Below are positions 5,266 to 36,101 of a DNA stretch of 36,101 nucleotides, piece after piece; within the stretch, counting starts at the first letter, position 1; each line of letters begins with the position of its first letter. Source of the stretch: Nemertoderma westbladi (lineage: Eukaryota > Animalia > Xenacoelomorpha); NCBI GenBank assembly GCA_032718475.1, contig JAUCBJ010008902.1, forward strand, positions 1 to 36,101, written 5' to 3'. A program made the position numbers and the translations under genes. The notes under the pieces are model-generated. The model worked only from the letters and a program-made list of their open reading frames with translations, was not told where the DNA came from and did not search any database.

Positions 5266-5272
5266 GGGGGAG
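5266..5272 (+). promoter_or_regulatory. Polypurine tract (plus-strand primer)
   Basis: GGGGGAG just after the pol stop, directly abutting TGTTGTG. Confidence 0.8.
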
Positions 5273-6947: not shown

Positions 6948-7287
6948 TTTCATTGCAGGATTATAACCCAATAAAGTATGTACCATTTTGCATTCTTAAT
7001 AGCACCCGCCTGGTTATCAGGCGTACCGAAGGAGGGTAGGGGATGACAAGTGTCACATGGCGCCGATAGCGAAGGGCGCCAAATTAGAAAATTCTGTCTA
7101 TGAGTTCTATCGAATTATTAAACATAATAATAATAATATAATTGTCTGATCGTATTTGGGACATTTGGAGTTTGGAGAAGGTTCTTAGAGATAATGAGAA
7201 TAAAATACTATACATATGTCGCATATATCATATGGCATATATCGGATTATGAATTTTTGCAATATTTTTTTTCGAAATGGGGACCTT

Positions 7288-8562: not shown

Positions 8563-9124
8563 CTGTTGAAAGAAACACAATGAAATAATATACTGCGGGC
8601 GTAGTAGTAAAAAAGATCGCCAGTGAGAGCAACAATGTCCTTTTTGATAATATGTGAAATTGCATTTTCTCGGATTGAGTTCGAAAAGATTCTAACTACT
8701 GTACATCAGACAGGTCCTATCAGAATTCATTTGCAAATCAACAGCAATTGCAATAAGACTGATGGAAGAAAATTTGAACTGAAGCAACATTAAGTCTACT
8801 AGTGCTGCATGTTCTTTACTATTAATGTTTATTGTATTATATATACCTGAAATAATTATACAGTATCTACTAGATGGTGGTGCTTGCGTACCGCGAAAGA
8901 AGCTCTCTACAGTAGTTTCAGACGACTGTTCAACTATCCGTGTCTTTCGTTCAAGTTACACTCAAAATAATGCATATACATCAATAATGTTTATCACATA
9001 ATGACTATGTTAAGAGTTAATGAACAGAAGGCGGCATATAATTATTGACCTTTCAATAAGTTTACTATATTATTATAACACCGTTACGACTTCTTACTGT
9101 AAAAGTATTCACTATCTATATATA

Positions 9125-9192
9125 TATGTATGTATGTGTGTTGTATGTATGTATGTATGTATGTATGTATGTATGTATGTATGTATGTATGT
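9125..9192 (+). repeat. (TATG)n microsatellite
   Basis: Read directly; preceded by A|TCTATATATATA and followed by GGTGAACT. Confidence 0.95.
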
Positions 9193-9201
9193 GTAGGTGA
9201 A

Positions 9202-9309
9202 CTGGTTCAAACAGGGGACAATAGCATGAATACACAGCGACAAACCGGGGACGATCTACAATCCGGGGACGTCCCCGGAATGAAAAGATATCAAAAATGG
9301 AATCTACGT
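9202..9309 (+). repeat. Dispersed ~105-bp repeat, copy 1, with the 18-bp palindrome TCCGGGGACGTCCCCGGA (9262-9279)
   Basis: Aligns by eye with 16945-17050 (GGGGACAAT.GCATGAATACACA.CGACAAACCGGGGACGAT...AATCTAC). Confidence 0.9.
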
Positions 9310-9966: not shown

Positions 9967-12900
9967 TCAGTTACTTGAAAATACATCCATATCATCTTTA
10001 CCAGAAACATTTCCCGAATCAGTATCAGAATTGCATAGATTGTTTTTATCTTCTTGAGAATCACCACAGACCATGTCACAGTTACTCAATGCCGGATTGC
10101 TGACATGTTGCTCACTGATGCAATCTGCAAGTTCAGCATAGTTGCTGCACCATGTAAACTCCTTAACAATATCAAGAACATTGGTGGTAGTTAAATCTGA
10201 TGTATCAAATAAGTCATGCCATGAACGCATGGTTTGCATAACAATAACAGACGCAGTTAACCTTGCCCCCAAACCCTATCCTCCTCCAACGACCCTGACC
10301 CATCCACTCCTTCAACCCCCAACGACCTCGTCCCACCCACTCCTTCAACCTCGGACAACCCTGCCCCAACCACTCCTTCAACATGCGACAACCCTGCCCC
10401 ACTCACACCTTTAAACTCAGACGACCCTGCCCCACTCACTACTTAAAACTCCGACAACCCTGCCCCACCCACTCCTTCAACCCCCAACGACCTCGTCCCA
10501 CCCACTCCTTCAACCTCGGACAACCCTGCCCCACCCACTCCTTCAACATCCGACAACCCTGCCCACTCACACCTTTAAACTCAGACGACCCTGACCCACT
10601 CACTCCTTCAACCTCCGACAACCCTGCCCCACCCACTCCTTTAAACTCCGACAATCCTGCCCCAGCCACTCCTTTAAACTCCAATGACCCTGCCCCACCC
10701 ACTCCTTCAACCTCCGACAACCCTGCCCCACTCACTCCTTTAAACTCCAATGACCCTGCCCCACCCACTCCTTTAAACTCCGACAATCCTGCCCCAGCCA
10801 CTCCTTTAAACTCCAATGACCCTGCCCCACCCACTCCTTCAACCTCCGACAACCCTGCCCCACTCACTCCTTTAAACTCAAATGACTCTGCCCCACCCAC
10901 TCCTTCAACCTCCGACAACCCTGCCCCACTCACTCCTTTAAACTCAGACAACCCTGCCCCATTCACTCCTTTAAACTCAAATGACCCTACCCCACCCACT
11001 CATTCGACCTCCGACAACCCTGCCCCACTCACTCATTTAAACTCAAATGACCCTGCCCCACCCACTCCTTCAACCTCCGACAACCCTGCCTCACTCACTC
11101 CTTTAAACTCAGACGACCCTGCTCCACTCACTCCTTTAAACTCCAATGACTCTGCCCCACCCACTCCTTCAACCTTCAACGACCCTGCCCCACCCACTCC
11201 ATCAACCTTCAACGACCCTGCCTCACCCACTCCTTAAACCTCCGACAACCCTGCCCCACTCACTCCTTTAAACTCCGACAACCCTGCCCCACTCACTCCT
11301 TTAAACTCCGACAACCCTGCCCCACTCACTCCTTTAAACTCCGACAACCCTGCCCCACTCACTCCTTTATATTCCAATCACCCTGCCCCACCCACTCCTT
11401 CAACCTCCAACGATCTCGCCCCACCCACTCCTTCAACCTCCAACGACTCTGCCCCACCCACTCCTTCAACCTCGGACAACCCTGCCCCACTCACACCTTT
11501 AAACTCAGACAAACCTGCCCCACTCACTACTTAAAACTCCGACAACCCTGCCCCACCCACTCCTTCAACCCCCAACGACCTCGTCCCACCCACTCCTTCA
11601 ACCTCGGACAACCCTGCCCCACCCACTCCTTCAACATCCGACAACCCTGCCCACTCACACCTTTAAACTCAGACGACCCTGACCCACTCACTCCTTCAAC
11701 CTCCGACAACCCTGCCCCACCCACTCCTTTAAACTCCGACAATCCTGCCCCAGCCACTCCTTTAAACTCCAATGACCCTGCCCCACCCACTCCTTCAACC
11801 TCCGACAACCCTGCCCCACTCACTCCTTTAAACTCCAATGACCCTGCCCCACCCACTCCTTTAAACTCCGACAATCCTGCCCCAGCCACTCCTTTAAACT
11901 CCAATGACCCTGCCCCACCCACTCCTTCAACCTCCGACAACCCTGCCCCACTCACTCCTTTAAACTCAAATGACTCTGCCCCACCCACTCCTTCAACCTC
12001 CGACAACCCTGCCCCACTCACTCCTTCAAACTCAGACAACCCTGCCCCATTCACTCCTTTAAACTCAAATGACCCTACCCCACCCACTCATTCGACCTCT
12101 GACAACCCTGCCCCACTCACTCATTTAAACTCAAATGACCCTGCCCCACCCACTCCTTCAACCTCCGACAACCCTGCCTCACTCACTCCTTTAAACTCAG
12201 ACGACCCTGCCCCACTCACTCCTTTAAACTCCAATGACTCTGCCCCACCCACTCCTTCAACCTTCAACGACCCTGCCCCACCCACTCCATCAACCTTCAA
12301 CGACCCTGCCTCACCCACTCCTTAAACCTCCGACAACCCTGCCCCACTCACTCCTTTAAACTCCGACAACCCTGCCCCACTCACTCCTTTAAACTCCGAC
12401 AACCCTGCCCCACTCACTCCTTTAAACTCCGACAACCCTGCCCCACTCACTCCTTTATATTCCAATCACCCTGCCCCACCCACTCCTTCAACCTCCAACG
12501 ATCTCGCCCCACCCACTCCTTCAACCTCCAACGACTCTGCCCCACCCACTCCTTCAACCTCGGACAACCCTGCCCCACTCACTCCTTTAAACTCAAATGA
12601 CCCTGCCCCACCCACTCCTTCAACCTCCGACAACCCTGCCCCACTCACTCCTTTAAACTCAAATGACCCTGCCCCACCCACTCCTTCAACCTCCGACAAC
12701 CCTGCCCCACTCACTCCTTTAAACTCAGACAACCCTACCCCACTCACTCCTTTAGACTCAAATGACCCTGCCCCACCCACTCCTTTGACCTCCGACAACC
12801 CTCTCCCACTCACTCCTTTAAACTCAAATGACCCTGCCCCACCCACTCCTTCAACCTCCGACAACCCTGCCCCACCCACTCCTTCAACCTCCGACAACCC

Positions 12901-15468
12901 TGCCCCACTCACTCCTTTAAACTCAAATGACCCTGCCCCACCCACTCCTTCAACCTCCGACAACCCTGCCCCACTCACTCCTTTAAACTCAGACAGCCCT
13001 GCCCCACTCACTCCTTTAAACTCAAATGACCCTACCCCACCCACTCCTTTGACCTCCGACAACCCTGCCCCACTCACTCCTTTAAACTCAAAACCCTGCC
13101 CCACCCACTCCTTCAACCTCCGACAACCCTGCCCCACTCACTCCTTTAAACTCAAATGACCCTGCCCCACCCACTCCTTCAACCTCCGACAACCCTGCCC
13201 CACTCACTCCTTTAAAATCAGACAGCCCTGCCCCACTCACTCCTTTAAACTCAAATGACCCTCCCCCACCCACTCCTTTGACCTCCGACAATCCTGCCCC
13301 ACTCACTCCTTTAAACTCAAAACCCTGCCCCACCCACTCCTTCAACCTCCGAAAACCCTGCCCCACTCACTCCTTTAAACTCCGACAACCCTGCCCCAGC
13401 CACTCCTTTAAACTCAAATGACCCTGCCCCACCCACTCCTTCAACCTCCGACAACCCTGCCCCACTCACTCCTTTAAACTCAGACGACCCTGCCCCACCC
13501 CCTCCTTTAAACTCCAATGACCCTGCCCCATACACTCCTTTAAACTCCGACGACCCTGCCCCACCTCCTCCTTTAAACTCCAATGACCCTGCCCCATCCA
13601 CTCCTTCAACCTCCGACAACCCTGCCCCATTCACTCCTTTAAAATCAGACAACCCTGCCCCACCCACTCCTTTAAATTCCAACGACCCAGACCCACCCAC
13701 TTCTTTAAACTCAGACGACCCTGCCCCACTCACTCCTTTAAACTCCAATGACTCTGCCCCACCCACTCCTTCAACCTTCAACGACCCTGCCCCACCCACT
13801 CCATCAACCTTCAACGACCCTGCCTCACCCACTCCTTAAACCTCCGACAACCCTGCCCCACTCACTCCTTTAAACTCCGACAACCCTGCCCCACTCACTC
13901 CTTTAAACTCCGACAACCCTGCCCCACTCACTCCTTTAAACTCCGACAACCCTGCCCCACTCACTCCTTTATATTCCAATCACCCTGCCCCACCCACTCC
14001 TTCAACCTCCAACGATCTCGCCCCACCCACTCCTTCAACCTCCAACGACTCTGCCCCACCCACTCCTTCAACCTCGGACAACCCTGCCCCACTCACTCCT
14101 TTAAACTCAAATGACCCTGCCCCACCCACTCCTTCAACCTCCGACAACCCTGCCCCACTCACTCCTTTAAACTCAAATGACCCTGCCCCACCCACTCCTT
14201 CAACCTCCGACAACCCTGCCCCACTCACTCCTTTAAACTCAGACAACCCTACCCCACTCACTCCTTTAAACTCAAATGACCCTGCCCCACCCACTCCTTT
14301 GACCTCCGACAACCCTCTCCCACTCACTCCTTTAAACTCAAATGACCCTGCCCCACCCACTCCTTCAACCTCCGACAACCCTGCCCCACCCACTCCTTCA
14401 ACCTCCGACAACCCTGCCCCACTCACTCCTTTAAACTCAAATGACCCTGCCCCACCCACTCCTTCAACCTCCGACAACCCTGCCCCACTCACTCCTTTAA
14501 ACTCAGACAGCCCTGCCCCACTCACTCCTTTAAACTCAAATGACCCTACCCCACCCACTCCTTTGACCTCCGACAACCCTGCCCCACTCACTCCTTTAAA
14601 CTCAAAACCCTGCCCCACCCACTCCTTCAACCTCCGACAACCCTGCCCCACTCACTCCTTTAAACTCAAATGACCCTGCCCCACCCACTCCTTCAACCTC
14701 CGACAACCCTGCCCCACTCACTCCTTTAAAATCAGACAGCCCTGCCCCACTCACTCCTTTAAACTCAAATGACCCTCCCCCACCCACTCCTTTGACCTCC
14801 GACAATCCTGCCCCACTCACTCCTTTAAACTCAAAACCCTGCCCCACCCACTCCTTCAACCTCCGAAAACCCTGCCCCACTCACTCCTTTAAACTCCGAC
14901 AACCCTGCCCCAGCCACTCCTTTAAACTCAAATGACCCTGCCCCACCCACTCCTTCAACCTCCGACAACCCTGCCCCACTCACTCCTTTAAACTCAGACG
15001 ACCCTGCCCCACCCCCTCCTTTAAACTCCAATGACCCTGCCCCATACACTCCTTTAAACTCCGACGACCCTGCCCCACCTCCTCCTTTAAACTCCAATGA
15101 CCCTGCCCCATCCACTCCTTCAACCTCCGACAACCCTGCCCCATTCACTCCTTTAAAATCAGACAACCCTGCCCCACCCACTCCTTTAAATTCCAACGAC
15201 CCAGACCCACCCACTTCTTTAAACTCCAACGACCCTGCCCCACCCACTCCTTTAAACTCCATCGACACAGCCCCACTCACTCCTTTAAACTCCGACAACT
15301 TAGGCACTTCAATATCTCTCTGTATCTCTTCTTTATTGTCCAATCTTCTAGTTGCTCTGCTTCTTTTTTGGTAAGATTTGATAACTTCCGTGTTATTCCA
15401 CCTTCTTCTTCTTGTATTCAATACCTTTTCTCCTTCCTTTTCAACCCCATAAACAAGTTAACATCCAT
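9967..15468 (-). pseudogene. Possible disrupted ORF whose middle is the expanded 11-aa repeat (LSEFKGVSGAG)
   Basis: A unique basic N-terminus (MDVNLFMGLKRKEKRY / LNTRRRRWNN...EVPK) runs in frame into the repeat. Unique acidic sequence (GARLTAS...DDMDVFSSN) follows on the other side. Several frameshifts arise from shortened units. Confidence 0.4.
10259..15299. repeat. 33-bp minisatellite, ~150 copies, consensus CCTGCCCCAC(C/T)CACTCCTT(TAAA/CAAC)CTCCGACAAC, with 1088-bp and 1514-bp higher-order duplications
   Basis: Unit counted directly. Near-identical ORF translations recur at 10439/11527 (offset 1088) and 12466/13980 (offset 1514). Confidence 0.97.
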
Positions 15469-15797: not shown

Positions 15798-16771
15798 GGC
15801 CCCGGTAGCACTACTTCAATAATTTTTTTCAAAAATTTTTTTAATTTCATCTAGAGCAGATTTATCAAGATTCCAAATTTGAAAACCGCTTAGCAAGATC
15901 TGTCCTATTTCTCGAGATATTGCTGTCTGTCCGTTTTACTGTCGGTTTGTCCGTCAGTATGTCTGTCCGTCAATAAAAAACATACGATTTGTCTAATAAA
16001 ATTCCCTGTGTGGGTTTTCGTGGTCGGTGACTTCATTTCTGATGTCATTAATCAAATTTGCCCTCGTCGGTTCTGTCTGTATGCCTGTCAGTCTGTCTGT
16101 CAAAATATAACCTATTTTTAGCATGGTTTATGCTTTCTTGTTGATACCTATATATTGACAAACTTTCTCACATATTAACAGACAATTTTTGCGCGGGAAG
16201 GTTCAAATTTTAAAGGCAATTATCTCGGAATTGTTTTTTTTGCATAAAAATAGCTTCAGACAATTCAATTTTCAATAAATTTTCAAAAATTTTGCTCAGA
16301 GGGGTTCTCTGATGTGCTCTCTCTTCAGATATCTCGATCTCGAATTCTGATTGTTTTATTCCAATAAGGAAATAATTGGCCAAAATTGAATAAAATATTT
16401 ATAATTTTTAATTTGTCAAAATTAAACAATAAACAAAACAAAAAACAGCACCAAAATGATAATTGTTAATTAATTTTTGAAATTTTGCTTCGAGATATCG
16501 AAAGAGCATACATTTTTGATGCGATTTGAAAAATTAGAAAGGAAAATACTCAAGATTGAATCTGATGAAGGTTTTTGGATTTTTATCCAAAAATTTGTCA
16601 ATATTTGTTAATATTTTTTCAAATTTTTGAAAAATTTGAATTTTTTATTTTTATTCATAATTACAAATCTTCCATTGACCTTCATACCAAGTTATGGTCG
16701 TTTCTGACAATGAGAAGTTGCTCTAACAAGGCAATATAAAAATCATGTCCATGTAGCGCTACCGCGGGGCC
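15798..16771. mobile_element. Non-autonomous TIR DNA transposon with TTAA target duplication (Kolobok-like)
   Basis: TTAA|GGCCCGGTAGCACTAC ... GTAGCGCTACCGCGGGGCC|TTAA. TTAA at 15794-15797 and 16772-16775. Purine (GG) termini fit Kolobok better than piggyBac (CC). No long ORF inside. Confidence 0.8.
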
Positions 16772-16944
16772 TTAAAATAATACCTAGACCAACGTATCGT
16801 ATGTTTTCATTTTTATGTATTTACTGTAGTACTAAAGAATTTAACTTGCTTAGTACCCAATCCTACTTGATATGTTCATGCAATCATATGTATTCAAAAA
16901 TATACATTACATACGGATACGGATTACACAGGATTACGTTGTAC

Positions 16945-17050
16945 CTGATTCATACCGGGGACAATTGCATGAATACACAACGACAAACCGGGGACGATTA
17001 ACAATCCGGGGACGTCCCCGGAGTGAATTGGTAGCTAAAATGCAATCTAC
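16945..17050 (+). repeat. Dispersed ~105-bp repeat, copy 2, with the same 18-bp palindrome (17005-17022)
   Basis: Direct repeat of 9202-9309. Confidence 0.9.
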
Positions 17051-17888
17051 ATCAACATCATTTTTTCTCCATAATCAGTATGAAATAAATGAATCGCTTA
17101 TTAAAATATAAATTTTAGAAACGAAATAATACATGTATTGTTTTCTTCTTATATATTAAGAAAATCAGAATTATAGCATTTAACTATATTATCGACTGTA
17201 TTAATGTTACGAACATCATGTAGTCAATAATATACTATTATTAGGCACTACATACTGCGAAATTAAATAAATGTTTCTTAGGTTTAGTTAATTATTTATT
17301 TCAAGTTCATTGGTTATTTTGATTATTATCACAAATAGCAATAAAAATATTAAAATATTTAGTTAAAATTGGTAGCAAAATGAAATCTACGTATTGTTTC
17401 CTCACATCAAAATCATATTGCCGAGTTAGTTACGAATACAAGGGTTTGAAGATTATGGCTGCCCATTGAACCCTTTCTATTTCTCAAGAATATTCCAGAA
17501 CATTATTTGTTATCCAATCACATATCGTCTGACACGGCAGCACATTGTTAAATGTTTAACATTGGGTAGAGTTAATGATTGTGTAAACTCTACCTGAAAT
17601 GTGCTCAATCACACTGGGGACCGGGTCGTGATTGGAGAAAAACTTAAACACACCAGTGAAATGTGTATGTTTGAGGACCCCAGTTCAACCTATGAGTAAC
17701 AAATTAGCAATCTTTAGAGTTGATAAATTTTGAATCAATAGAATGACGTAAAATGGTCTCCTGAGTCTATCGGTGCCAAAATAATTTAATTTGAACCAAG
17801 AATAAAGAAGTTATAAGGGAATCAATATCGACCCCAGAACCGACCGATAGAAATAACGGTCCCCAGAATGGGGGTTGTACAAAGAGGG

Positions 17889-18039
17889 GTGTATGTATGT
17901 ATGTATGTATGTATGTATGTATGTATGTATGTATGTATGTATGTATGTATGTATGTATGTATGTATGTATGTATGTATGTATGTATGTATGTATGTATGT
18001 ATGTATGTATGTATGTATGTATGTATGTATGTATGTATG
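17889..18039 (+). repeat. (TATG)n microsatellite, ~37 units
   Basis: Read directly; followed by GGGTGAACTCCTCCGAA. Confidence 0.97.
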
Positions 18040-18374
18040 CGTATCTATCTATATCGGGTGAACTCCTCCGAAGCTATAGCTCGTCCGTCAATGAAAGTTA
18101 TATCAATCGACGCAGCTCAAACCTAGGAAGTAGAAAAAAGGTTACGAAAAAAATTATTAAAGTGTCTTTTTTTATTTCGAAAAATAGCCCCATAACACGA
18201 AAATTGCCATAGACTCAATGATAGCACCAGCTGCTGGTGCTCCTGAGGGCATAGTAAGCCACTACTATTGATTGAATGGATAGGCCCAAACTGCAGAGAA
18301 TTATATTTTACTTGCCAAGTTTTTTACTCTATCCCAGACAAGTAATCTAATATAAGCTGTTAGAAAGTAATGTA

Positions 18375-18508
18375 TTATCCCGCCAGCTGAATAGTTCTTC
18401 CCAGTGTGCCAACTAATAGTATATTATTGTAGTATACTAACTACTACGCCTACACAAATTGGAAATGTTTTATCCCGCCAGCTGAATAGCTCTTCCCAGT
18501 GTGCCAAC
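18375..18508 (+). repeat. 39-bp direct repeat, two copies 95 bp apart, one mismatch
   Basis: TTATCCCGCCAGCTGAATAG(T/C)TCTTCCCAGTGTGCCAAC at 18375-18413 and 18470-18508. Confidence 0.9.
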
Positions 18509-18646
18509 AAACTACAGTAATAGTTTTATTATTGTACAGTAGTATATAGTAGGCCTATACATGATATTGTAGCAGTAGTATGATATACTTGTACACTGCG
18601 TCATGGTCACCCGTAGCCCATCATTACCATCATTACCATCCATTTT

Positions 18647-18822
18647 CTAGTACTGCAGCCAATCAGAAGCCACCATTTCAACCTTTACCAGTGGTCGTTA
18701 TTATTTCAACCAATCAGATGTCAGCATTTCATCCGTAACCACTGCAACTTCTCAAGTTCCCGCATCTTCCGCTAGAGGCGTTATTAGTCACCCAACTCTA
18801 GTACTGCATCCAATCATAAGCC
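18647..18822 (+). promoter_or_regulatory. Cluster of three CCAAT boxes (putative Pol II promoter)
   Basis: AGCCAATCAG (~18657), AACCAATCAG (~18708), ATCCAATCAT (~18808). The first and third lie in a duplicated CTAGTACTGCA.CCAATCA.AAGCC context. Confidence 0.5.
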
Positions 18823-19095
18823 TTTATTTTACAGGTGTTCGGGTGTCTACACTTAGCATCAGGTAACTTCTACTATTTTTCAAATCGTTATTTTTCAGCA
18901 ACCAGTATTTTCATATTCAGCAACCTTTATTTTACAGACGCTAGAGGTGTCTACAGGTAACTTCTACTATTTTTCAAATCGCAATTTTTATATTCACTAA
19001 CCTTTATCTTCCAGGTGTTCGAGTGTCTACACTTAGCATCAGGTAACTTCTACTATTTTTCACCAGTAACTAAATTTAATTTTGCAATTTTTCAG
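18821..19095 (+). repeat. Triplicated acceptor/micro-exon/donor unit
   Basis: cctttat.tt.cag|exon|gtaacttctactatttttca three times. Exons 18835-18862 (28 nt), 18938-18956 (19 nt), 19015-19042 (28 nt). Confidence 0.65.
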
Positions 19096-19615
19096 ATAAC
19101 AAAATATTCAACCGGATTCGAACTCGGGACTGATACATCCCCTCATAACTCACCAATCACTCTTCCATCCAATCTCGAGAGAAAAAGGTGATAAATATCT
19201 GAGTTATACCATAGTCATTGAATTCTTCATCTTCATCACTGGTAGCAGATGTTTATAAATAGCATCTAATCCCTTAACATAATTAATATAGCATAGAATA
19301 CATTAATTCGACTATTAATAATAATCGATTTTTTTATCGATGTAACCGATCGATCAACTAAGTTGAATATAAGTTAGAATAATAGGACTAGCATTGTTCT
19401 CGTTGCATCTGTTACTCGTTACTGCTATTTCACTCTCTAACTCACGCTAATGTAATAATTTTAGCTGTACACGTTGTTGCATCTGTTACACGAATCTACT
19501 ATATTCCTCACTGTAAGTCGCTCTGCTGTATTAAAGCAACCATATAAACCGAAGTTTTACAATCTAATAATCATTTATTTAGTTTTTATTTTTCAAAATA
19601 GTTTTCATTCTAATT

Positions 19616-20164
19616 ATGGATTTATTTAAAAAAACTTCAAGCAATACTTGGAAATTTACATTTAATAAATATACCTGTAGTATTGTTTATGGCAAGTACT
19701 TTATATTACTCTCATGCGATAGCAATGTAACAACGTGCTTCTCTTACCTGGATACACTCTACCTTCTAGACGTCTTAGAAATATTATTCAACCGACAAAA
19801 GGAATCACCAGTTTCAAGAGGTAATATTTATCCTAATATAGAATTTACAAGAGGAAAGTTAAATATTTCCACCTGTGTTATTACTGAAAACGTATATATT
19901 CAGAAGCAAGGCAAATGTCAAATTCTAAACAAATCACTCATTAATTTATTGCTTCAGAGTAAGACAGAAATATTAGAATTGTTATCACCACCACTCGAAA
20001 TAATAAATCAGTGTTCTGTTGTTAATTTAACCAACTCATCTTTTGTTGGTTTTGTAAGCAAATATAAAGGAACGACTTATATGGGACTATGGGAGATTTC
20101 AGCTAGATATTCTGATGCTATTGGTCTTAGGTATTATAATGGGTTTAACTTAACTAAACTGTGA
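19616..20164 (+). CDS. 182-aa hypothetical protein with a C-terminal PC4/whirly-like ssDNA-binding motif
   Basis: ATG-started ORF that is long for AT-rich DNA. FVSKYKGTTYMGLWE...GFNLT resembles PC4 VSVRDFKGKVLIDIRE...KGISL. The similarity is by eye only. Confidence 0.5.
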   Translation: MDLFKKTSSNTWKFTFNKYTCSIVYGKYFILLSCDSNVTTCFSYLDTLYLLDVLEILFNRQKESPVSRGNIYPNIEFTRGKLNISTCVITENVYIQKQGKCQILNKSLINLLLQSKTEILELLSPPLEIINQCSVVNLTNSSFVGFVSKYKGTTYMGLWEISARYSDAIGLRYYNGFNLTKL

Positions 20165-20165
20165 T

Positions 20166-21147
20166 TTCTAACGCTGATTGGTGTGTTATTGAAGTGTGCC
20201 TAAGATTACGAATGCTTAGATAGGCGCTCTTTTCCTTTGATTGATTTCTATTTCTTAGTTACAATAATTAGTTATTGATTAGGTCAAAGTAATACGGCAA
20301 ATTAGGCTATTACTAGCGAAACCTGTTGCGTGATAAATTAGAATTACGTATTCTGGAACTCTTAGTAATTAGTACGCTGTTAAATATTTGTGACTGTAAC
20401 TAATTAGTAAAAATTAAGAATTAGTACGCAGCATAGCGGAGAGTAGCTAAGGTAATAATTAGTGTACTGTAAACTATTCACGCTGAGCGGTTATTTGCAT
20501 TAGCGGGCAATCAGCTAGAACGCACTATTCGGTACGCACGATACGCTAGTAATTTTGCTGGCCTAAAGCCAGTCGCGGGCAGTTTTAGACTCGGGTGGTA
20601 TTACCCACGTAGAAACAGATACTGTACCATTTTGATATTTTAAATATTCTCGCATTCACACATTACGTTAGGGAACCTCCAGTATTCGCGATTAGAAAGA
20701 CGTAGGTAATAGCGTGCTTTAATAGTGATAAAATTAGGCGTAAGAATACTCTGAGTGCAAGGCCTCTCGCACTCGTCTTAAGTAAGCTTAGGGAGCCGAC
20801 TCGGGTTTATTGTTTTGGTTATTCCCGCGTGGCTCATAGATTCGAACAGTTAGCTCTCTATCGAGCGATCGGTAGAGAAAGGAACAAGCGATTTTGCAGG
20901 AGTTGTGTAAAATTAGTAAAATATATTAGTGGACGGCAGATTAGCGCCATCTAACGGTAAGTAGCGGTTCTGTATTTAGCAACCCTTACAATTTAGTAAT
21001 AGCACGCTCCTGATCCCCTTTACTTAACAGTAGAGCAGTCTTTGTGTCTTATTGGTTAGGCGAGAGCTCATTAGGTTGACAGAAGGATATTAACGGGTAT
21101 TGGTCTGTTCAACAGTTCTGCTGTTAGTATAGAGGTCGCGGTTGTTT
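20166..21147 (+). ncRNA. Putative ~980-nt multi-domain structured RNA, family unassigned
   Basis: Dense nested helices whose non-Watson-Crick pairs are G-U on the + strand. Long-range closures 20166-20180/20508-20520, 20523-20540/20713-20727 and 20882-20895/21132-21147. GNRA-capped 10-bp hairpin at 20855-20878. No ORF in the track. Confidence 0.65.
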
Positions 21148-21149
21148 AT

Positions 21150-24100
21150 CAACTCCTGTTGTAGAACTGATAAACCTTGTCAACCACTCCTGTTGTAGAA
21201 CTGATAAACCTTGTCAGCCACTCCTGTTGTAGAACTGAACCTTGTCAGCCACTCCTGTTGTAGAACTGATAAACATTGTCAGCCACTCCTGTTGTAGAAC
21301 TGATAAACCTTGTCAGCCACTCCTGTTGTAAAACTGATAAATCTTGTCATCCACTCCTGTTGTAGAACTGATAAACCTTGTCAGCCACTCCTGTTGTAGA
21401 ACTGATAAACCTTGTCAGCCACTCCTGTTGTAGAACTGATAAACATTGTCAGCCACTCCTGTTGTAGAACCGATAAACCTTGTCAGCCACTCCTGTTGTG
21501 GAGCTGATAAACCTTGTCAGCGACTCCTGTTGTGGAGCTGATAAACCTTGTCAGCCACTCCTGTTGTAGAACTGATAAACCTTGTCAGCAACTCCTGTTG
21601 TAGAACTGTTAAACCTTGTAAGCCACTCCTGTTGTAGAACTGATAAACCTTGTCAACCACTCCTGTTGTAGAACTGATAAACCTTGTCAACCACTCCTGT
21701 TGTAGAACTGATAAACCTTGTAAGCCACTCCTGTTGTAGAACTGATAAACCTTGTCAACCACTCCTGTTGTAGAACTGATAAACCTTGTCAGCCACTCCT
21801 GTTGTAGAACTGAACCTTGTCAGCCACTCCTGTTGTAGAACTAATAAACCTTGTCAGCCACTCTAGTTGAAGAACTGATAAATCTTGTCAGCCACTCCTG
21901 TTGTAGAACTGATAAACATTGTCAGCCACTCCTGTTGTAGAACTGATAAACCTTGTCAGCCACTCCAGTTGAAGAACTGATAAACTTTGTCAGCCACTCC
22001 AGTTGAAGAACTGATAAACTTTGTCAGCCACTCCTGTTGTAGAACTGATAAACATTGTCAGCCACTCCTGTTGCTGTTGTAGAACTGATAAACATTGTCA
22101 GCCACTCCTGTTGTAGAACTGATAAACATTGTCAGCCACTCCTGTTGCAGAACTGATGAACCTTGTCAGCCACTCCTGTTTTAGAACTGATACACCTTAT
22201 CAGCCGCTCCTGTTGTAGAACTGATAAACCTTGTCAGCCACTCCTGTTGTAGAACTGATAAACCTTGTCAGCCACTCCTGTTGTAGAACTGATAAACATT
22301 GTCAGCCACTCCTGTTGTAGAACCGATAAACCTTGTCAGCCACTCCTGTTGTAGAACTGATAAACCTTGTCAGCCACTCCTGTTGTGGAACTGATAAACC
22401 TTGTCAGCCACTCCTGTTGTAGAACTGATAAACCTTGTCAGCCACTCCTGTTGTAGAACTGTTAAACCTTGTCAGCAACTCCTGTTGTAGAACTGATAAT
22501 GCTTGTAAGCCACTCCTGTTGTAGAACTGATAAACCTTGTCAACCACTCCTGTTGTAGAACTGATAAACCTTGTCAGCCACTCCTGTTGTGGAACTGATA
22601 AACCTTGTCAGCCACTCCTGTTGTAGAACTAATAAACCTTGTCAGCCACTCCTGTTGTAGAACTGATAAACCTTGTCAGTCACTCCTGTTGTAGAACTGA
22701 TAAACATTGTCACCCACTCCTGTTGTAGAACTGATAAACTTTGTCAGCCACTCATGTTGTAGAACTGATAAACCTCGTCAGTCATTCCTGTTGTAGAACT
22801 GATAACCCTTGTCAGCCACTCCTGTTGTAGAACTGATAAACCTTGTCAGCCACTCCTGTTGTAGAAGTGATAAACTTTGTCAGCCACTCCTGTTGTAGAA
22901 CTGATGAACCTTGTCAGCCACTCCTGTTGTAGAAGTGATAAACTTTGTCAGCCACTCCTGTTGTAGAACTGATGAACCTTGTCAGTCACTCCTGTTGAAG
23001 AACTGATAAACATTGTCAGCCACTCATGTTGTAGAACTGATAAACTTTGTCAGCCACTCCTGTTGCAGAACTGATAAACCTTGTCAGTCACTCCTGTTGT
23101 AGAACTGGTAAACCTTGTCAGCCACTCCTGTTGTAGAACTGATAAACCTTGTCAGTCACTCCTGTTGTAGAACTGATAAACCTTGTCAGCCACTCCTGTT
23201 GTAGAACTGATAAACTTTGTCAGCCACTCCTGTTGTAGAACTGATAAACCTTGTCAGTCACTCCTGTTGTAGAACTGATAAACTTTGTCAGCCACTCCTG
23301 TTGTAGAACTGATAAACTTTGTCAGCCACTCCTGTTGTGGAACTGATAAACATTGTCAGCCACTCCTGTTGTAGAATTGACAAACCATATCAGCCACTCT
23401 AGTTGTAGAACTGATAAACCATGTCAGCCACTCCTGTTGTAGAACTGATAAACTTTGTCAGCCACTCCTGTTGTAGAACTGACAAACCTTGTCAGCCACT
23501 CATGTTGTAGAACTGATAAACATTGTCAGCCACTCCTGTTGTAGAAATAATAAACCTTGTCAGCCACTCCTGTTGTAGAACTGACAAACCATATCAGCCA
23601 CTCTAGTTGTAGAACTGATAAACCATGTCAGCCACTCCTGTTGTAGAACTAATAAACTTTGTCAGCCACTCCTGTTGTAGAACTGATAAACCTTGTCAGC
23701 CACTCCTGTTGTAGAACTGATAAACCTTGTCAGCCACTCCTGTTGTAGAACTGATAAACTTTGTCAGTCACTCCTGTTGTAGAACTGATAAACCTTGTCA
23801 GCCACTCCTGTTGTAGAACTGATAAACTTTGTCAGCCACTCCTGTTGTAGAACTGATAAACCTTGTCAGTTACTCCTGTTGTAGAACTGATAAACTTTGT
23901 CAGCCACTCCTGTTGTAGAACTGATAAACCTTGTCAGCCACTCCAGTTGAAGAACTGATAAACCTTATCAGCCACTCCAGTTGTAGAACTGATAAACCTT
24001 GACAGCCACTCCTGTTGTAGAACTGATAAACCTTGTCAGCCACTCCTGTTGTAGAACTGATAAACCTTGTCAGCCGCTCCAGTTGTAGAACTGATAAACC

Positions 24101-27100
24101 TTGTCAGCCACTCCTGTTGTAGAACTGATAAACCTTGTCAGCCACTCCTGTTGTAGAACTGATAAACATTGTCAGCCACTCCTGTTGTAGAACCGATAAA
24201 CCTTGTCAGCCACTCCTGTTGTAGAACTGATAAACCTTGTCAGCCACTCCTGTTGTGGAACTGATAAACCTTGTTAGCCACTCCTGTTGTAGAACTGATA
24301 AACCTTGTCAGCCACTCCTGTTGTAGAACTGTTAAACCTTGTCAGCAACTCCTGTTGTAGAACTGATAATGCTTGTAAGCCACTCCTGTTGTAGAACTGA
24401 TAAACCTTGTCAACCACTCCTGTTGTAGAACTGATAAACCTTGTCAGCCACTCCTGTTGTGGAACTGATAAACCTTGTCAGCCACTCCTGTTGTAGAACT
24501 AATAAACCTTGTCAGCCACTCCTGTTGTAGAACTGATAAACCTTGTCAGTCACTCCTGTTGTAGAACTGATAAACATTGTCACCCACTCCTGTTGTAGAA
24601 CTGATAAACTTTGTCAGCCACTCATGTTGTAGAACTGATAAACCTCGTCAGTCATTCCTGTTGTAGAACTGATAACCCTTGTCAGCCACTCCTGTTGTAG
24701 AACTGATAAACCTTGTCAGCCACTCCTGTTGTAGAAGTGATAAACTTTGTCAGCCACTCCTGTTGTAGAACTGATGAACCTTGTCAGCCACTCCTGTTGT
24801 AGAAGTGATAAACTTTGTCAGCCACTCCTGTTGTAGAACTGATGAACCTTGTCAGTCACTCCTGTTGAAGAACTGATAAACATTGTCAGCCACTCCTGTT
24901 GTAGAACTGATAAACTTTGTCAGCCACTCCTGTTGTAGAACTGATAAACCTTGTCAGTCACTCCTGTTGTAGAACTGGTAAACCTTGTCAGCCACTCCTG
25001 TTGTAGAACTGATAAACCTTGTCAGTCACTCCTGTTGTAGAACTGATAAACCTTGTCAGCCACTCCTGTTGTAGAACTGATAAACTTTGTCAGCCACTCC
25101 TGTTGTAGAACTGATAAACCTTGTCAGTCACTCCTGTTGTAGAACTGATAAACTTTGTCAGCCACTCCTGTTGTAGAACTGATAAACTTTGTCAGCCACT
25201 CCTGTTGTGGAACTGATAAACATTGTCAGCCACTCCTGTTGTAGAATTGACAAACCATATCAGCCACTCTAGTTGTAGAACTGATAAACTGTCAGCCACT
25301 CCTGTTGTAGAACTGATAAACCTTGTCAGTCACTCCTGTTGTAGAACTGATAAACTTTGTCAGCCACTCCTGTTGTAGAACTGATAAACTTTGTCAGCCA
25401 CTCCTGTTGTGGAACTGATAAACATTGTCAGCCACTCCTGTTGTAGAATTGACAAACCATATCAGCCACTCTAGTTGTAGAACTGATAAACCATGTCAGC
25501 CACTCCTGTTGTAGAACTGATAAACTTTGTCAGCCACTCCTGTTGTAGAACTGACAAACCTTGTCAGCCACTCATGTTGTAGAACTGATAAACATTGTCA
25601 GCCACTCCTGTTGTAGAAATAATAAACCTTGTCAGCCACTCCTGTTGTAGAACTGACAAACCATATCAGCCACTCTAGTTGTAGAACTGATAAACCATGT
25701 CAGCCACTCCTGTTGTAGAACTAATAAACTTTGTCAGCCACTCCTGTTGTAGAACTGATAAACCTTGTCAGCCACTCCTGTTGTAGAACTGATAAACCTT
25801 GTCAGCCACTCCTGTTGTAGAACTGATAAACTTTGTCAGTCACTCCTGTTGTAGAACTGATAAACCTTGTCAGCCACTCCTGTTGTAGAACTGATAAACT
25901 TTGTCAGCCACTTCTGTTGTAGAACTGATAAACCTTGTCAGTTACTCCTGTTGTAGAACTGATAAACTTTGTCAGCCACTCCTGTTGTAGAACTGATAAA
26001 CCTTGTCAGCCACTCCAGTTGTAGAACTGATAAACCTTATCAGCCACTCCAGTTGTAGAACTGATAAACCTTGACAGCCACTCCTGTTGTAGAACTGATA
26101 AACCTTGTCAGCCACTCCTGTTGTAGAACTGATAAACCTTGTCAGCCGCTCCAGTTGTAGAACTGATAAACCTTGTCAGCCACTCCTGTTGTAGAACTGA
26201 TAAACCTTGTCAACCACTCCTGTTGTATAACTCATAAACTTTGTCAGTCACTCCTGTTGTAGAAGTGTTAAACCTTGTCAGCCACTCCTGTTGTAGAACT
26301 GATAAACGTTGTCCGCCACTCCTGTTGTAGAACTGATAAACCTTGTCACCCACTCCAGTTTTAGAACTGATAAACCTTGTCAGCCACTCCAGTTGTAGAA
26401 CTGAAAAACCTTGACAGCCACTCCTGTTGTAGAACTGATAAACCTTGTCAGCCACTCCTGTTGTAGAACTGATAAACCTTGTCAGCCACTCCAGTTGAGA
26501 ACTGATAAACTTTGTCAGCCACTCCTGTTGTAGAACTGATAAACCTTGTCAGCCACTCCAGTTTTAGAACTGATAAACCTTGTCAGCCACTCCAGTTGTA
26601 GAACTGAAAAACCTTGACAGCCACTCCTGTTGTAGAACTGATAAACCTTGTCAGCCACTCCTGTTGTAGAACTGATAAACCTTGTCAGCCACTCCAGTTG
26701 AGAACTGATAAACCTTGTCAGCCACTCCTGTTGTAGAACTGATAAACATTGTCAGCCACTCCTGTTGTAGAACTGATAAACCTTGTCAGCCACTCCTGTT
26801 GTAGAACTGAAAAAGCTTGTCAACAACTCCTGTTGTAGAACTGATAAACCTTGTCAGTCACTCTTGTTGTAGAACTGATAAACCTTGTCAGCCACTCCTG
26901 TTGTAGAACTGATAAAGCTTGTCAACCACTCCTGTTGTAGAACTGATAAACCTTGTCAGCCATTCCTGTTGTAGAACTGATAAACCTTGTCAATCACTCT
27001 TGTTGTAGAACTGATAAAATTAGTCAGTCACTCCTGTTGTAGAAGTGTTAAACCTTGTCAGTCACTCCTGTTGTAGAACTGGTAAACCTTGTCAGCCACT

Positions 27101-30100
27101 CCTGTTGTAGAACTGATAAACCTTGTCAGTCACTCCTGTTGTAGAACTGATAAACCTTGTCAGCCACTCCTGTTGTAGAACTGATAAACTTTGTCAGCCA
27201 CTCCTGTTGTAGAACTGATAAACCTTGTCAGTCACTCCTGTTGTAGAACTGATAAACTTTGTCAGCCACTCCTGTTGTAGAACTGATAAACTTTGTCAGC
27301 CACTCCTGTTGTGGAACTGATAAACATTGTCAGCCACTCCTGTTGTAGAATTGACAAACCATATCAGCCACTCTAGTTGTAGAACTGATAAACCATGTCA
27401 GCCACTCCTGTTGTAGAACTGATAAACTTTGTCAGCCACTCCTGTTGTAGAACTGACAAACCTTGTCAGCCACTCATGTTGTAGAACTGATAAACATTGT
27501 CAGCCACTCCTGTTGTAGAAATAATAAACCTTGTCAGCCACTCCTGTTGTAGAACTGACAAACCATATCAGCCACTCTAGTTGTAGAACTGATAAACCAT
27601 GTCAGCCACTCCTGTTGTAGAACTAATAAACTTTGTCAGCCACTCCTGTTGTAGAACTGATAAACCTTGTCAGCCACTCCTGTTGTAGAACTGATAAACC
27701 TTGTCAGCCACTCCTGTTGTAGAACTGATAAACTTTGTCAGTCACTCCTGTTGTAGAACTGATAAACCTTGTCAGCCACTCCTGTTGTAGAACTGATAAA
27801 CTTTGTCAGCCACTCCTGTTGTAGAACTGATAAACCTTGTCAGTTACTCCTGTTGTAGAACTGATAAACTTTGTCAGCCACTCCTGTTGTAGAACTGATA
27901 AACCTTGTCAGCCACTCCAGTTGTAGAACTGATAAACCTTATCAGCCACTCCAGTTGTAGAACTGATAAACCTTGACAGCCACTCCTGTTGTAGAACTGA
28001 TAAACCTTGTCAGCCACTCCTGTTGTAGAACTGATAAACCTTGTCAGCCGCTCCAGTTGTAGAACTGATAAACCTTGTCAGCCACTCCTGTTGTAGAACT
28101 GATAAACCTTGTCAACCACTCCTGTTGTATAACTGATAAACTTTGTCAGTCACTCCTGTTGTAGAAGTGTTAAACCTTGTCAGCCACTCCTGTTGTAGAA
28201 CTGATAAACGTTGTCCGCCACTCCTGTTGTAGAACTGATAAACCTTGTCACCCACTCCAGTTTTAGAACTGATAAACCTTGTCAGCCACTCCAGTTGTAG
28301 AACTGAAAAACCTTGACAGCCACTCCTGTTGTAGAACTGATAAACCTTGTCAGCCACTCCTGTTGTAGAACTGATAAACCTTGTCAGCCACTCCAGTTGA
28401 GAACTGATAAACTTTGTCAGCCACTCCTGTTGTAGAACTGATAAACCTTGTCAGCCACTCCAGTTTTAGAACTGATAAACCTTGTCAGCCACTCCAGTTG
28501 TAGAACTGAAAAACCTTGACAGCCACTCCTGTTGTAGAACTGATAAACCTTGTCAGCCACTCCTGTTGTAGAACTGATAAACCTTGTCAGCCATTCCAGT
28601 TGAGAACTGATAAACCTTGTCAGCCACTCCTGTTGTAGAACTGATAAACATTGTCAGCCACTCCTGTTGTAGAACTGATAAACCTTGTCAGCCACTCCTG
28701 TTGTAGAACTGAAAAAGCTTGTCAACAACTCCTGTTGTAGAACTGATAAACCTTGTCAGTCACTCCTGTTGTAGAACTGATAAACCTTGTCAGCCACTCC
28801 TGTTGTAGAACTGATAAAGCTTGTCAACCACTCCTGTTGTAGAACTGATAAACCTTGTCAGCCATTCCTGTTGTAGAACTGATAAACCTTGTCAATCACT
28901 CTTGTTGTAGAACTGATAAACTTAGTCAGTCACTCCTGTTGTAGAAGTGTTAAACCTTGTCAGCCACTCTTGTTGTAGAACTGATAAACCTTGTCAGCCA
29001 CTCCTGTTGTAGAACTGATAAAGCTTGTCAACCACTCCTGTTGTAGAACTGATAAACCTTGTCAGCCATTCCTGTTGTAGAACTGATAAACCTTGTCAGC
29101 CACTCCTGTTGTAGAACTGATAAACATTGTCAGCCACTCCTGTTTTAGAACTGATAAACCTTGTCAGCCACTCCTGTTGTAGAACTGATAAACCTTGTCA
29201 GCCACTCCTGTTGTAGAACTGATAAATCTTGTCAGCCACTCCTGTTGTAGAACTGATAAACCTTGTCAGCCACTCCTGTTGTAGAACTTTTAAACCTGGT
29301 CAGCAACTCCTGTTGTAGAACAGATAAACCTTGTCAGCCACTCCTTTTGTAGAACTGATAAACCTTGTCAGCCACTCCAGTTGAGAAATGATAAACTTTG
29401 TCAGCCACTCTTGTTGTAGAACTGATAAAACTTGTCAGCCACTCCTGTTGTAGAACTGATAAACATTGTCAGCCACTCCTGTTGTAGAACTGATAAACCT
29501 TGTCAGCCACTCCTGTTGTAGAACTGTTAAAGCTTGTCAACCACTCCTGTTGTAGAACTGATAAACCTTGTCAGCCATTCCTGTTGTAGAACTGATAAAC
29601 CTTGTTAGCCACTCCTGTTGTAGAACTGATAAACATTGTCAGCCACTCCTGTTTTAGAACTGATAAACCACGTCAGCCACTCCTGTTGTAGAACTGATAA
29701 ACCTTGTCAGCCACTCCTGTTGTAGAACTGATAAATCTTGTCAGCCACTCCTGTTGTAGAACTGATAAACCTTGTCAGCCACTCCTGTTGTAGAACTGAT
29801 AAACTTTGTCAGCCACTCCTGTTGTAGAACTGATAAACATTGTCAGCCACTCCTGTTGTAGAACTGACAAACCATATCAGCCACTCTAGTTGTAGAACTG
29901 ATAAACCATGTCAGCCACTCCTGTTGTAGAACTAATAAACTTTGTCAGCCACTCCTGTTGTAGAACTGATAAACCTTGTCAGCCACTCCTGTTGTAGAAC
30001 TGATAAACCTTGTCAGCCACTCCTGTTGTAGAACTGATAAACTTTGTCAGTCACTCCTGTTGTAGAACTGATAAACCTTGTCAGCCACTCCTGTTGTAGA

Positions 30101-33100
30101 ACTGATAAACTTTGTCAGCCACTCCTGTTGTAGAACTGATAAACCTTGTCAGTTACTCCTGTTGTAGAACTGATAAACTTTGTCAGCCACTCCTGTTGTA
30201 GAACTGATAAACCTTGTCAGCCACTCCAGTTGTAGAACTGATAAACCTTATCAGCCACTCCAGTTGTAGAACTGATAAACCTTGACAGCCACTCCTGTTG
30301 TAGAACTGATAAACCTTGTCAGCCACTCCTGTTGTAGAACTGATAAACCTTGTCAGCCGCTCCAGTTGTAGAACTGATAAACCTTGTCAGCCACTCCTGT
30401 TGTAGAACTGATAAACCTTGTCAACCACTCCTGTTGTATAACTGATAAACTTTGTCAGTCACTCCTGTTGTAGAAGTGTTAAACCTTGTCAGCCACTCCT
30501 GTTGTAGAACTGATAAACTTTGTCCGCCACTCCTGTTGTAGAACTGATAAACCTTGTCACCCACTCCAGTTTTAGAACTGATAAACCTTGTCAGCCACTC
30601 CAGTTGTAGAACTGAAAAACCTTGACAGTAACTCCTGTTGTAGAACTGATAAACCGTGTCAGCCACTCCTGTTGTAGAACTGATAAACCTTGTCAGCCAC
30701 TCCAGTTGAGAACTGATAAACTTTGTCAGCCACTCCTGTTGTAGAACTGATAAACCTTGTCAGCCACTCCAGTTTTAGAACTGATAAACCTTGTCAGCCA
30801 CTCCAGTTGTAGAACTGAAAAACCTTGACAGCCACTCCTGTTGTAGAACTGATAAACCTTGTCAGCCACTCCTGTTGTAGAACTGATAAACTTTGTCAGT
30901 CACTCCTGTTGTAGAACTGATAAACCTTGTCAGCCACTCCTGTTGTAGAACTGATAAACTTTGTCAGCCACTCCTGTTGTAGAACTGATAAACCTTGTCA
31001 GTTACTCCTGTTGTAGAACTGATAAACTTTGTCAGCCACTCCTGTTGTAGAACTGATAAACCTTGTCAGCCACTCCAGTTGTAGAACTGATAAACCTTAT
31101 CAGCCACTCCAGTTGTAGAACTGATAAACCTTGACAGCCACTCCTGTTGTAGAACTGATAAACCTTGTCAGCCACTCCTGTTGTAGAACTGATAAACCTT
31201 GTCAGCCGCTCCAGTTGTAGAACTGATAAACCTTGTCAGCCACTCCTGTTGTAGAACTGATAAACCTTGTCAACCACTCCTGTTGTATAACTCATAAACT
31301 TTGTCAGTCACTCCTGTTGTAGAAGTGTTAAACCTTGTCAGCCACTCCTGTTGTAGAACTGATAAACGTTGTCCGCCACTCCTGTTGTAGAACTGATAAA
31401 CCTTGTCACCCACTCCAGTTTTAGAACTGATAAACCTTGTCAGCCACTCCAGTTGTAGAACTGAAAAACCTTGACAGCCACTCCTGTTGTAGAACTGATA
31501 AACCTTGTCAGCCACTCCTGTTGTAGAACTGATAAACCTTGTCAGCCACTCCAGTTGAGAACTGATAAACTTTGTCAGCCACTCCTGTTGTAGAACTGAT
31601 AAACCTTGTCAGCCACTCCAGTTTTAGAACTGATAAACCTTGTCAGCCACTCCAGTTGTAGAACTGAAAAACCTTGACAGCCACTCCTGTTGTAGAACTG
31701 ATAAACCTTGTCAGCCACTCCTGTTGTAGAACTGATAAACCTTGTCAGCCACTCCAGTTGAGAACTGATAAACCTTGTCAGCCACTCCTGTTGTAGAACT
31801 GATAAACATTGTCAGCCACTCCTGTTGTAGAACTGATAAACCTTGTCAGCCACTCCTGTTGTAGAACTGAAAAAGCTTGTCAACAACTCCTGTTGTAGAA
31901 CTGATAAACCTTGTCAGTCACTCTTGTTGTAGAACTGATAAACCTTGTCAGCCACTCCTGTTGTAGAACTGATAAAGCTTGTCAACCACTCCTGTTGTAG
32001 AACTGATAAACCTTGTCAGCCATTCCTGTTGTAGAACTGATACACCTTGTCAATCACTCTTGTTGTAGAACTGATAAAATTAGTCAGTCACTCCTGTTGT
32101 AGAAGTGTTAAACCTTGTCAGTCACTCCTGTTGTAGAACTGGTAAACCTTGTCAGCCACTCCTGTTGTAGAACTGATAAACCTTGTCAGTCACTCCTGTT
32201 GTAGAACTGATAAACCTTGTCAGCCACTCCTGTTGTAGAACTGATAAACTTTGTCAGCCACTCCTGTTGTAGAACTGATAAACCTTGTCAGTCACTCCTG
32301 TTGTAGAACTGATAAACTTTGTCAGCCACTCCTGTTGTAGAACTGATAAACTTTGTCAGCCACTCCTGTTGTGGAACTGATAAACATTGTCAGCCACTCC
32401 TGTTGTAGAATTGACAAACCATATCAGCCACTCTAGTTGTAGAACTGATAAACCATGTCAGCCACTCCTGTTGTAGAACTGATAAACTTTGTCAGCCACT
32501 CCTGTTGTAGAACTGACAAACCTTGTCAGTCACTCATGTTGTAGAACTGATAAACATTGTCAGCCACTCCTGTTGTAGAAATAATAAACCTTGTCAGCCA
32601 CTCCTGTTGTAGAACTGACAAACCATATCAGCCACTCTAGTTGTAGAACTGATAAACCATGTCAGCCACTCCTGTTGTAGAACTAATAAACTTTGTCAGC
32701 CACTCCTGTTGTAGAACTGATAAACCTTGTCAGCCACTCCTGTTGTAGAACTGATAAACTTTGTCAGCCACTCCTGTTGTAGAACTGATAAACCTTGTCA
32801 GTTACTCCTGTTGTAGAACTGATAAACTTTGTCAGCCACTCCTGTTGTAGAACTGATAAACCTTGTCAGCCACTCCAGTTGTAGAACTGATAAACCTTAT
32901 CAGCCACTCCAGTTGTAGAACTGATAAACCTTGACAGCCACTCCTGTTGTAGAACTGATAAACCTTGTCAGCCACTCCTGTTGTAGAACTGATAAACCTT
33001 GTCAGCCGCTCCAGTTGTAGAACTGATAAACCTTGTCAGCCACTCCTGTTGTAGAACTGATAAACCTTGTCAACCACTCCTGTTGTATAACTCATAAACT

Positions 33101-36100: not shown

Positions 36101-36101
36101 C
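21150..36101. repeat. 34-bp satellite, ~440 copies in the window, consensus GTCAGCCACTCCTGTTGTAGAACTGATAAACCTT, continuing past the window end
   Basis: Unit counted directly; head-to-tail, no spacers, highly homogeneous. Confidence 0.99.

Follow-up and report, generated by a model that had tools for sequence, protein, structure and literature searches.

A predicted folded 1-kb segment between an orphan gene and a satellite array of Nemertoderma westbladi, possibly a dispersed mobile unit

Animal retrozymes are about 170-400 nt long, arranged in tandem, expressed as circles and defined by a hammerhead (PMC7229834; bioRxiv 10.64898/2026.07.22.740005), and the mobile folded RNAs described in the papers cited here are small hammerhead retrozymes of this kind. 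[quoted passage not shown] Abrupt junctions of satellites with mobile or anonymous DNA are common; in molluscs, the neighbours are transposon pieces (PMC5139131). Large folded non-coding RNAs of invertebrate nuclear genomes are poorly catalogued. Here we analyse a segment of about 1 kb with a predicted RNA fold, which lies between an orphan open reading frame (ORF) and a 34-bp satellite array in a 36,101-nt stretch of Nemertoderma westbladi DNA (contig JAUCBJ010008902.1; hereafter the window, Table 1). An earlier note had joined the three as a candidate system: a PC4-like ORF and a large structured RNA in one transcription unit, possibly tied to the origin of the array and possibly carried by a Helitron-, Polinton- or virus-derived element; it allowed that their neighbourhood could be accidental. 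Its observation is partly confirmed and its interpretation partly supported: the three parts exist, but the system is not supported. Tentatively, we favour a different reading, namely that the segment is a dispersed non-coding mobile unit that folds as RNA, and that one of its copies interrupted this gene and has come to lie next to the satellite. This reading draws on an RNA-specific and plus-strand-specific fold, on helix arms at both borders, on diverged copies and on an ORF that continues elsewhere.

Table 1. Coordinates of the features discussed, in window positions
Feature	Position	Strand	Remarks
BEL/Pao retrotransposon	68-5253	+	two overlapping frames; DUF1759, reverse transcriptase, peptidase A17, integrase zinc finger, DUF5641 (Pfam)
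PTH2-like sequence	6449-6950	+	without introns, frameshifted; Pfam E 1.7e-09
TauD-family (butyrobetaine dioxygenase-like) frame	7909-8580	-	223 codons; Pfam E 2e-27
106-nt repeat	9202-9307 and 16945-17050		two copies, 87% identical; palindrome inside
Second satellite, 33-bp unit	10284-15299		152 copies; plus strand strongly enriched in C (GC skew about -0.77)
Promoter-like stretch	18646-18822	+	three CCAAT boxes within duplicated 46-nt unit; putative function
Five predicted non-coding leader exons	18835-18862, 18938-18956, 19015-19042, 19096-19187, 19465-19512	+	AG/GT ends
Orphan ORF	19616-20164	+	182 codons, TGA 20162-20164; native sequence likely ends at 20154
Breakpoint	20154/20155		99%-identical contig (20068-20154) diverges from window
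Non-coding segment, predicted single multi-branched RNA	20155-21148	+	994 nt; CpG-rich, ATTAG-rich
Closing helix (14 bp), 5' arm	20157-20170	+	contains the TGA of the ORF
Hairpin with compensatory change	20753-20774	+	C-G to U-A (20758/20769) in a diverged copy
Hairpin opening with AGC triad	20793-20835	+	resembles group II intron domain V loosely, with an 18-nt U-rich top and short 3' side; no Rfam support
10-bp hairpin, GNRA-type tetraloop cap	20855-20878	+	0/200 shuffles
Closing helix, 3' arm	21130-21143	+	
34-bp satellite	21152-36101		440 copies; ~4% from commonest unit; runs off window

The signal for folding comes from the plus strand. Its predicted fold reaches -290 kcal/mol, which was matched by none of 20 shuffles (z -3.56) and none of 56 dinucleotide shuffles (z -3.27); when 3-, 4- or 5-mers were preserved z was -4.0, -2.9 and -3.8, respectively, again with no shuffle as good (0/75). 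The minus strand gave z -0.87 (6/20 shuffles) and DNA parameters gave z -0.9 on both strands (3/20 and 4/20), which places the fold signal in the G-U pairs of one strand. Confident pairs (probability >0.8) number 217, of which 28 are G-U, and this count exceeds those of all 12 shuffles (34-208) and of all 18 genomic 1-kb controls (44-174). In the predicted layout a 14-bp closing helix leads into a large domain with many arms, after which come the GNRA-capped hairpin and two more arms, with few spacer bases; an internal arm at 20542-20742 is at chance level (z -0.5). The large structured RNA that the earlier note had pointed out therefore holds as a prediction. The longest frame within the segment has 82 codons (genetic codes 1, 4, 5, 9 and 10), no tRNA was found, and prokaryotic promoter or terminator signals reach chance level only. 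Rfam returned nothing relevant for it, ribozymes included; relative to Rfam it is an unclassified folded unit, which may belong to a catalogued repeat family.

Both borders of the segment carry marks of their own. The closing helix (mean pair probability 0.98; 4 G-U in 14 pairs) joins its two ends, and a 14-bp helix between the first and last 30 nt occurs in 1 of 2000 shuffles and in 2 of 550 overlapping genomic spans; among 628 windows, the sole 14-bp partner of the last 30 nt before the satellite is the one at the breakpoint, the next best partner reaching 11. The 5' border was located with the help of one public run that contains the region. This run is stored as contigs, holds 0.32 of the sampled window words and is of uncertain kind (RNA is a guess only); the parts that it does not cover (18045-19349, 20155-20230 and 21060 onward) were kept out of the evidence. 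One of its contigs, with 1 difference in 87 nt, departs from the window at 20154, which lies two bases short of the closing helix's 5' arm, and continues for 80 nt that are unlike the window at this place and absent elsewhere in it. In the 30 letters of the continuation that are shown, the frame stays open, judged by eye, where that of the window stops. At the 3' border, 8 nt separate the end of the best-supported helix (21143) from the array, and a second register (by eye) reaches 21148. The earlier note had placed the first helix 2 nt after the TGA and the end of the last one at 21147, 3 nt from the satellite; a terminal helix near both borders is indeed predicted, but it begins inside the ORF at 20157, and its far end does not lie where the note had put it. 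The composition changes as well, from 5 CpG in 385 nt on the ORF side to 49 in the 994 nt of the segment. With the contig break and the CpG shift at the 5' border and arms of the closing helix near both, the segment has the appearance of a unit bounded by ends of its own, to which the TGA would belong; the helix that the note saw right behind the stop would then mark a junction more readily than the designed end of a gene.

The same run points to further copies. Alongside 99% records across most of the segment it holds two diverged records of the same places, one with 15 substitutions and 6 gap letters in 173 nt and the other with 6 substitutions in 110 nt; 12 substitutions of the first and 5 of the second could be placed individually. 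In the first copy, 4 of the 5 changes in confident pairs retain pairing (P 0.03), and 7 changes lie outside confident pairs. Comparison of the copies thus gives weak support to selection on the fold. It also loosens the linkage of ORF and RNA on which the proposed system had relied, and goes part of the way to the independent occurrence that the earlier note had named as counter-evidence: the run has the ORF without the segment and, separately, diverged copies of the segment, although the window itself keeps the two side by side.

How such a unit might move can be sketched as follows. It would spread via a folded RNA intermediate, which the reverse transcriptase of some autonomous element, a putative helper, would copy back into DNA, while the closing stem would protect the ends and set the length of the unit. 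One copy would have inserted into a copy of a spliced orphan gene and truncated it, the TGA being an accidental stop brought along by the unit. The remainder of the gene may then have been lost on joining the satellite, either by recombination between two unit copies or by deletion into the array, and the satellite would be a neighbour of the unit and not its product. By analogy, the segment would work most like a retrozyme without a ribozyme. Like retrozymes it is non-coding and folded, has several dispersed copies and would likely be moved by the reverse transcriptase of another element; unlike them it is 994 nt long, is present as one copy in the window and has no hammerhead core on either strand.

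Several observations weigh against this mobile-unit reading. Folds of z -3 to -4 also occur in three of 36 control 500-nt strand-windows; taken alone, the segment's 5' half reaches only z -1.9. About half of 100 shuffled 1-kb sequences contain a helix of at least 14 bp at some place, so that for the closing helix only the position counts. The linkage evidence consists of one contig of depth 2.85 from one run, and this contig may be a chimera, another copy of the gene or a derived state. No clean target-site duplication was found, just 4-6 nt matches in an AACT-rich flank, and the segment has no poly(A) tail, no ribozyme core and no partner element that we could find. Covariation is thin: the first diverged copy has a single compensatory pair with both sides changed (P 0.08), and in the second one pair is kept and two are broken, the partners of the broken pairs lying outside the record. 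Finally, the run contains the leader region 19350-19510 in a diverged copy as well, which means that the gene region is multi-copy too and would fit gene and segment being parts of one larger family.

This last observation leads to the alternative that survives best, a possible though rather unlikely one, in which a single larger element, multi-copy and derived from a transposon or virus, has the gene and the folded RNA as modules. Whole copies would have a longer ORF, and the RNA, as a separate transcript or 3' module, would lie farther downstream in them; the copy in the window would have lost the intervening part, the stems fixing the ends of the deletion. Leader region and segment both have copies of ~90% identity beside 99% copies in the run, the two lie on the same strand, and an orphan protein, a promoter-like region and a short-exon leader would suit such an element, as would PUR-family chains among the better fold matches of the protein (Z 5.7 and 5.1, see below). 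The account nevertheless requires that two breaks arose independently, both no more than 2-8 nt away from the closing helix, and has to accommodate the sharp CpG contrast between ORF and segment. An ORF and Pfam scan of the window found no transposase, polymerase or capsid gene beside the ORF or the folded segment, and no hallmark genes or carrier ends of Helitrons, Polintons or viruses adjoining the locus. The mobile origin proposed in the earlier note is plausible.

We consider it quite unlikely that a G+T-rich strand with self-pairing UUAG words gives rise to the fold as a by-product, the segment being decayed repeat DNA and its borders those of an ordinary repeat or a mis-join. The word ATTAG, which can self-pair through G-U, occurs 15 times in the segment against 2.8 expected, control windows attain a similar z, covariation is weak and there is no Rfam match. 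These points speak for a by-product; against it, the signal persists under 5-mer-preserving shuffles, the fold is better defined than in all 18 genomic controls, the closing helix lies at both borders and one hairpin is GNRA-capped. As a separate observation, TTAG occurs 26 times on the plus and 6 times on the minus strand of 20155-21148. A role of the ATTAG words as looped protein sites is disfavoured, as they are unpaired at 0.42 compared with 0.35 overall.

That the segment is a group II-like intron in degenerate form, or a retroelement derived from such an intron, is very unlikely. The resemblance starts with GUGUG at 20181, which opens a five-armed junction whose fifth arm bears an AGC triad, and extends to a possible exon-binding site 1, in which 20173-80 pairs with the loop 20508-15 over 8 bp (0-3 of 1000 shuffles preserving 2- to 4-mers). 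However, this pairing was picked after the fact from 18 perfect 8-mer pairings in the segment, where 11-14 are expected, and a second candidate exon-binding site is on the wrong side. GUGYG, present at 20181 and 20194, is a common 5-mer and lies away from the contig break, which is at 20154 and not at 20180. In the fifth arm, the tetraloop and spacing typical of domain V are missing, domain VI with its bulged A was not seen in the fold (by eye), and the group II models of Rfam went unmatched up to E 10, also when only 161 nt were searched. Extra domains and the closing helix lie outside the would-be intron, and the setting is nuclear, where such introns are reported missing. The contigs of the run have no splice joint for it, although contigs cannot show absence.

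The least probable account, and one that we hold very doubtful, is the model drawn from the earlier note. One transcript would encode a small protein that binds nucleic acids and would also yield, from its 3' UTR, a scaffold RNA of 1 kb linked to the 34-mer array. In its favour, the strand is the same, no gap and neither AATAAA nor ATTAAA lies between ORF and array, read-through from the upstream promoter would span the segment and the Ustilago telomerase RNA (PMC9564094) sets a precedent. Against it, the ORF goes on in the run, beyond 20154, without the segment, the third repeat of the modelled protein has no helix in the window, no 34-mer template occurs on either strand and the PC4 identity is unproven. 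Our verdict against a single transcription unit is not final, because the linkage evidence is the one depth-2.85 contig of one run. As in Ustilago, the ORF of a spliced transcript is directly followed by a folded RNA of ~1 kb, fold and splicing here being predicted; unlike in Ustilago, there is no repeat template, the ORF is an orphan and seemingly interrupted, and there are several copies. CCCTAA, a template for TTAGGG, is absent from the plus strand, although TTAGGG may not be the telomere repeat of the host.

Two further classes of mobile element do not match either. Short interspersed elements (SINEs) transcribed by RNA polymerase III have internal A and B boxes, a tRNA-like head and no T4 runs; seven T4 runs on the plus strand and the lack of a tRNA in the segment speak against a SINE. 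A miniature inverted-repeat transposable element (MITE) or other DNA transposon, which would have near-perfect terminal inverted repeats and a target-site duplication, does not fit, as the ends pair only with 4 G-U in 14, there is no fold signal at the DNA level and no clean target-site duplication is present, though the right flank may be lost.

If the mobile-unit reading is true, a 1-kb end-paired multi-copy unit would be a new RNA family. It is unlikely, in our estimate, that it goes further and represents an undescribed class of kb-sized, end-paired folded RNA of ribozyme scale that moves as a unit, hammerhead-free, within the nuclear genome of an animal, possibly descends from a group II-like intron and keeps its fold across copies. 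Were the group II-like marks real, they would bear on why such introns are missing from nuclei. A three-part system of protein, RNA and array would have mattered more but is unsupported, and the 1-kb folded unit is the part that merits follow-up. DNA searches found no similarity in phages or plasmids. Exact patterns for the satellite, a leader exon and the 3' end had 0 matches in viral contigs, and an exact 20-mer pattern had 0 matches in metagenomes; looser patterns gave 14, 1 and 6 loci, and all 21 lacked similarity outside the pattern (best E 0.47). In full-text literature searches we found no description of the element, nor of PC4-like genes joined to such an RNA.

The evidence supports the ORF upstream of the break as a genuine gene, which has a non-coding leader with predicted splicing and, before it, a promoter-like stretch. 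It sits in an open frame of 193 codons at 31% G+C, and none of 2000 shuffles reaches 183, so that the ORF ending in the TGA described in the earlier note exceeds chance; contigs of the run match it at 99% across 19771-20154. Within it are a strong acceptor at 19769 and a donor at 19821, and a contig begins at 19771 but continues unspliced to 20084; 19770-19820 is a possible alternative exon.

The PC4 likeness claimed for its protein turned out to be one of pattern, with no family, sequence or fold search significant. Proteins of the PC4, PUR and Whirly families have a repeat layout of four strands plus a helix. Single-sequence models of the ORF protein, which are of low confidence (pLDDT 36.6 and 39.2), predict a comparable layout of three repeats of four strands, with a helix after the first two and none after the third; BLASTP does not align repeats 2 and 3 to each other. 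Unlike members of these families, the ORF has no profile or sequence match: Pfam returned nothing for it, and the PC4 and PUR profiles were unmatched at E up to 1 or 10 with five forms of the ORF. No relatives were found among homologues sized 47-151, 100-319 and 229-2000 aa, nor among PDB sequences, viral loci, metagenome loci and phages. The best hits in PHROGs (E 0.048) and in the ESM Atlas (0.87) were to unnamed entries and below threshold. In a wide fold search PUR chains ranked 3 (Z 5.7, root-mean-square deviation 2.6, 52 aligned) and 12 (Z 5.1, deviation 1.9, 45 aligned), with PUR matches at Z 3.5-5.7 overall and every row below 8, and Foldseek matches had E 0.37-0.61. PC4 itself was not among the fold matches listed, a listing that does not exclude it. 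As the models are poor and the PUR Z values are level with those of unrelated sheets, the PC4/PUR likeness of the modelled protein is only a lead.

The CCAAT boxes noted upstream were located at 18659, 18710 and 18810, three against 0.36 expected (P 0.005, for a stretch picked after the fact). Immediately 5' of them lies a 95-nt direct duplication (18369-18561), which contains what we take to be an E2F-like word and an E-box. The predicted leader exons carry no ATG. Introns 1-3 would be 75, 58 and 53 nt long, exons 1-3 are products of local duplication, and a pyrimidine tract with AG stands directly 5' of each of exons 1-4. A spliced-leader RNA gene has its leader exon at the transcript start without an upstream acceptor, and a Sm-binding site behind the donor. 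Here an acceptor precedes each of exons 1-4 and no Sm-like site lies within 120 nt behind the donor (0/4 exons), which argues that the leader exons are cis-spliced; Rfam has no spliced-leader RNA match either. The repeated short exons of the earlier note thus exist, but their spliced-leader identity does not hold.

The 34-mer array, correctly recognised before, starts abruptly at 21152, and its best higher-order period is about 1.9 kb. The segment resembles the satellite unit, as copy or complement, at chance level only (160/300 and 248/300 shuffles score as well), as do its last 100 nt (244/500 and 120/500 shuffles). Templating of the satellite by the RNA is ruled out, as no 34-mer match rises above chance on either strand, and with no homology and no template there is nothing to link the RNA with how the array arose, as had been suggested. 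The locus is like the mollusc satellite-transposon junctions (PMC5139131) in its sudden switch from array to anonymous or mobile sequence, and unlike them in that no Helitron ends were seen and the flank is a folded RNA-like unit. At the join, the 8 nt of 21144-21151 repeat a stretch of the satellite unit in inverted orientation, the kind of trace that a fold-back would leave; the corresponding hairpin has z only -1.4.

Judged from its BEL/Pao, PTH2-like and TauD-like pieces, short spliceosomal introns and satellites, the whole window appears to be nuclear DNA of an animal-like eukaryote. The PTH2-like sequence is likely a processed pseudogene. Pro/Thr/Asn-rich open frames cross the 33-bp satellite, and TATG microsatellites lie at 9113-9192 and 17890-18039. 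The 106-nt repeat pair we take to resemble non-autonomous Helitron or MITE families. Two control windows on the minus strand (15820-16319 and 16820-17319) fold at z -3.6 and -4.0 (ten shuffles each) and are likely inverted-repeat elements. Behind the BEL/Pao element, near 5268-5280, a purine tract followed by a TG start resembles, by eye, the border of a BEL/Pao 3' long terminal repeat.

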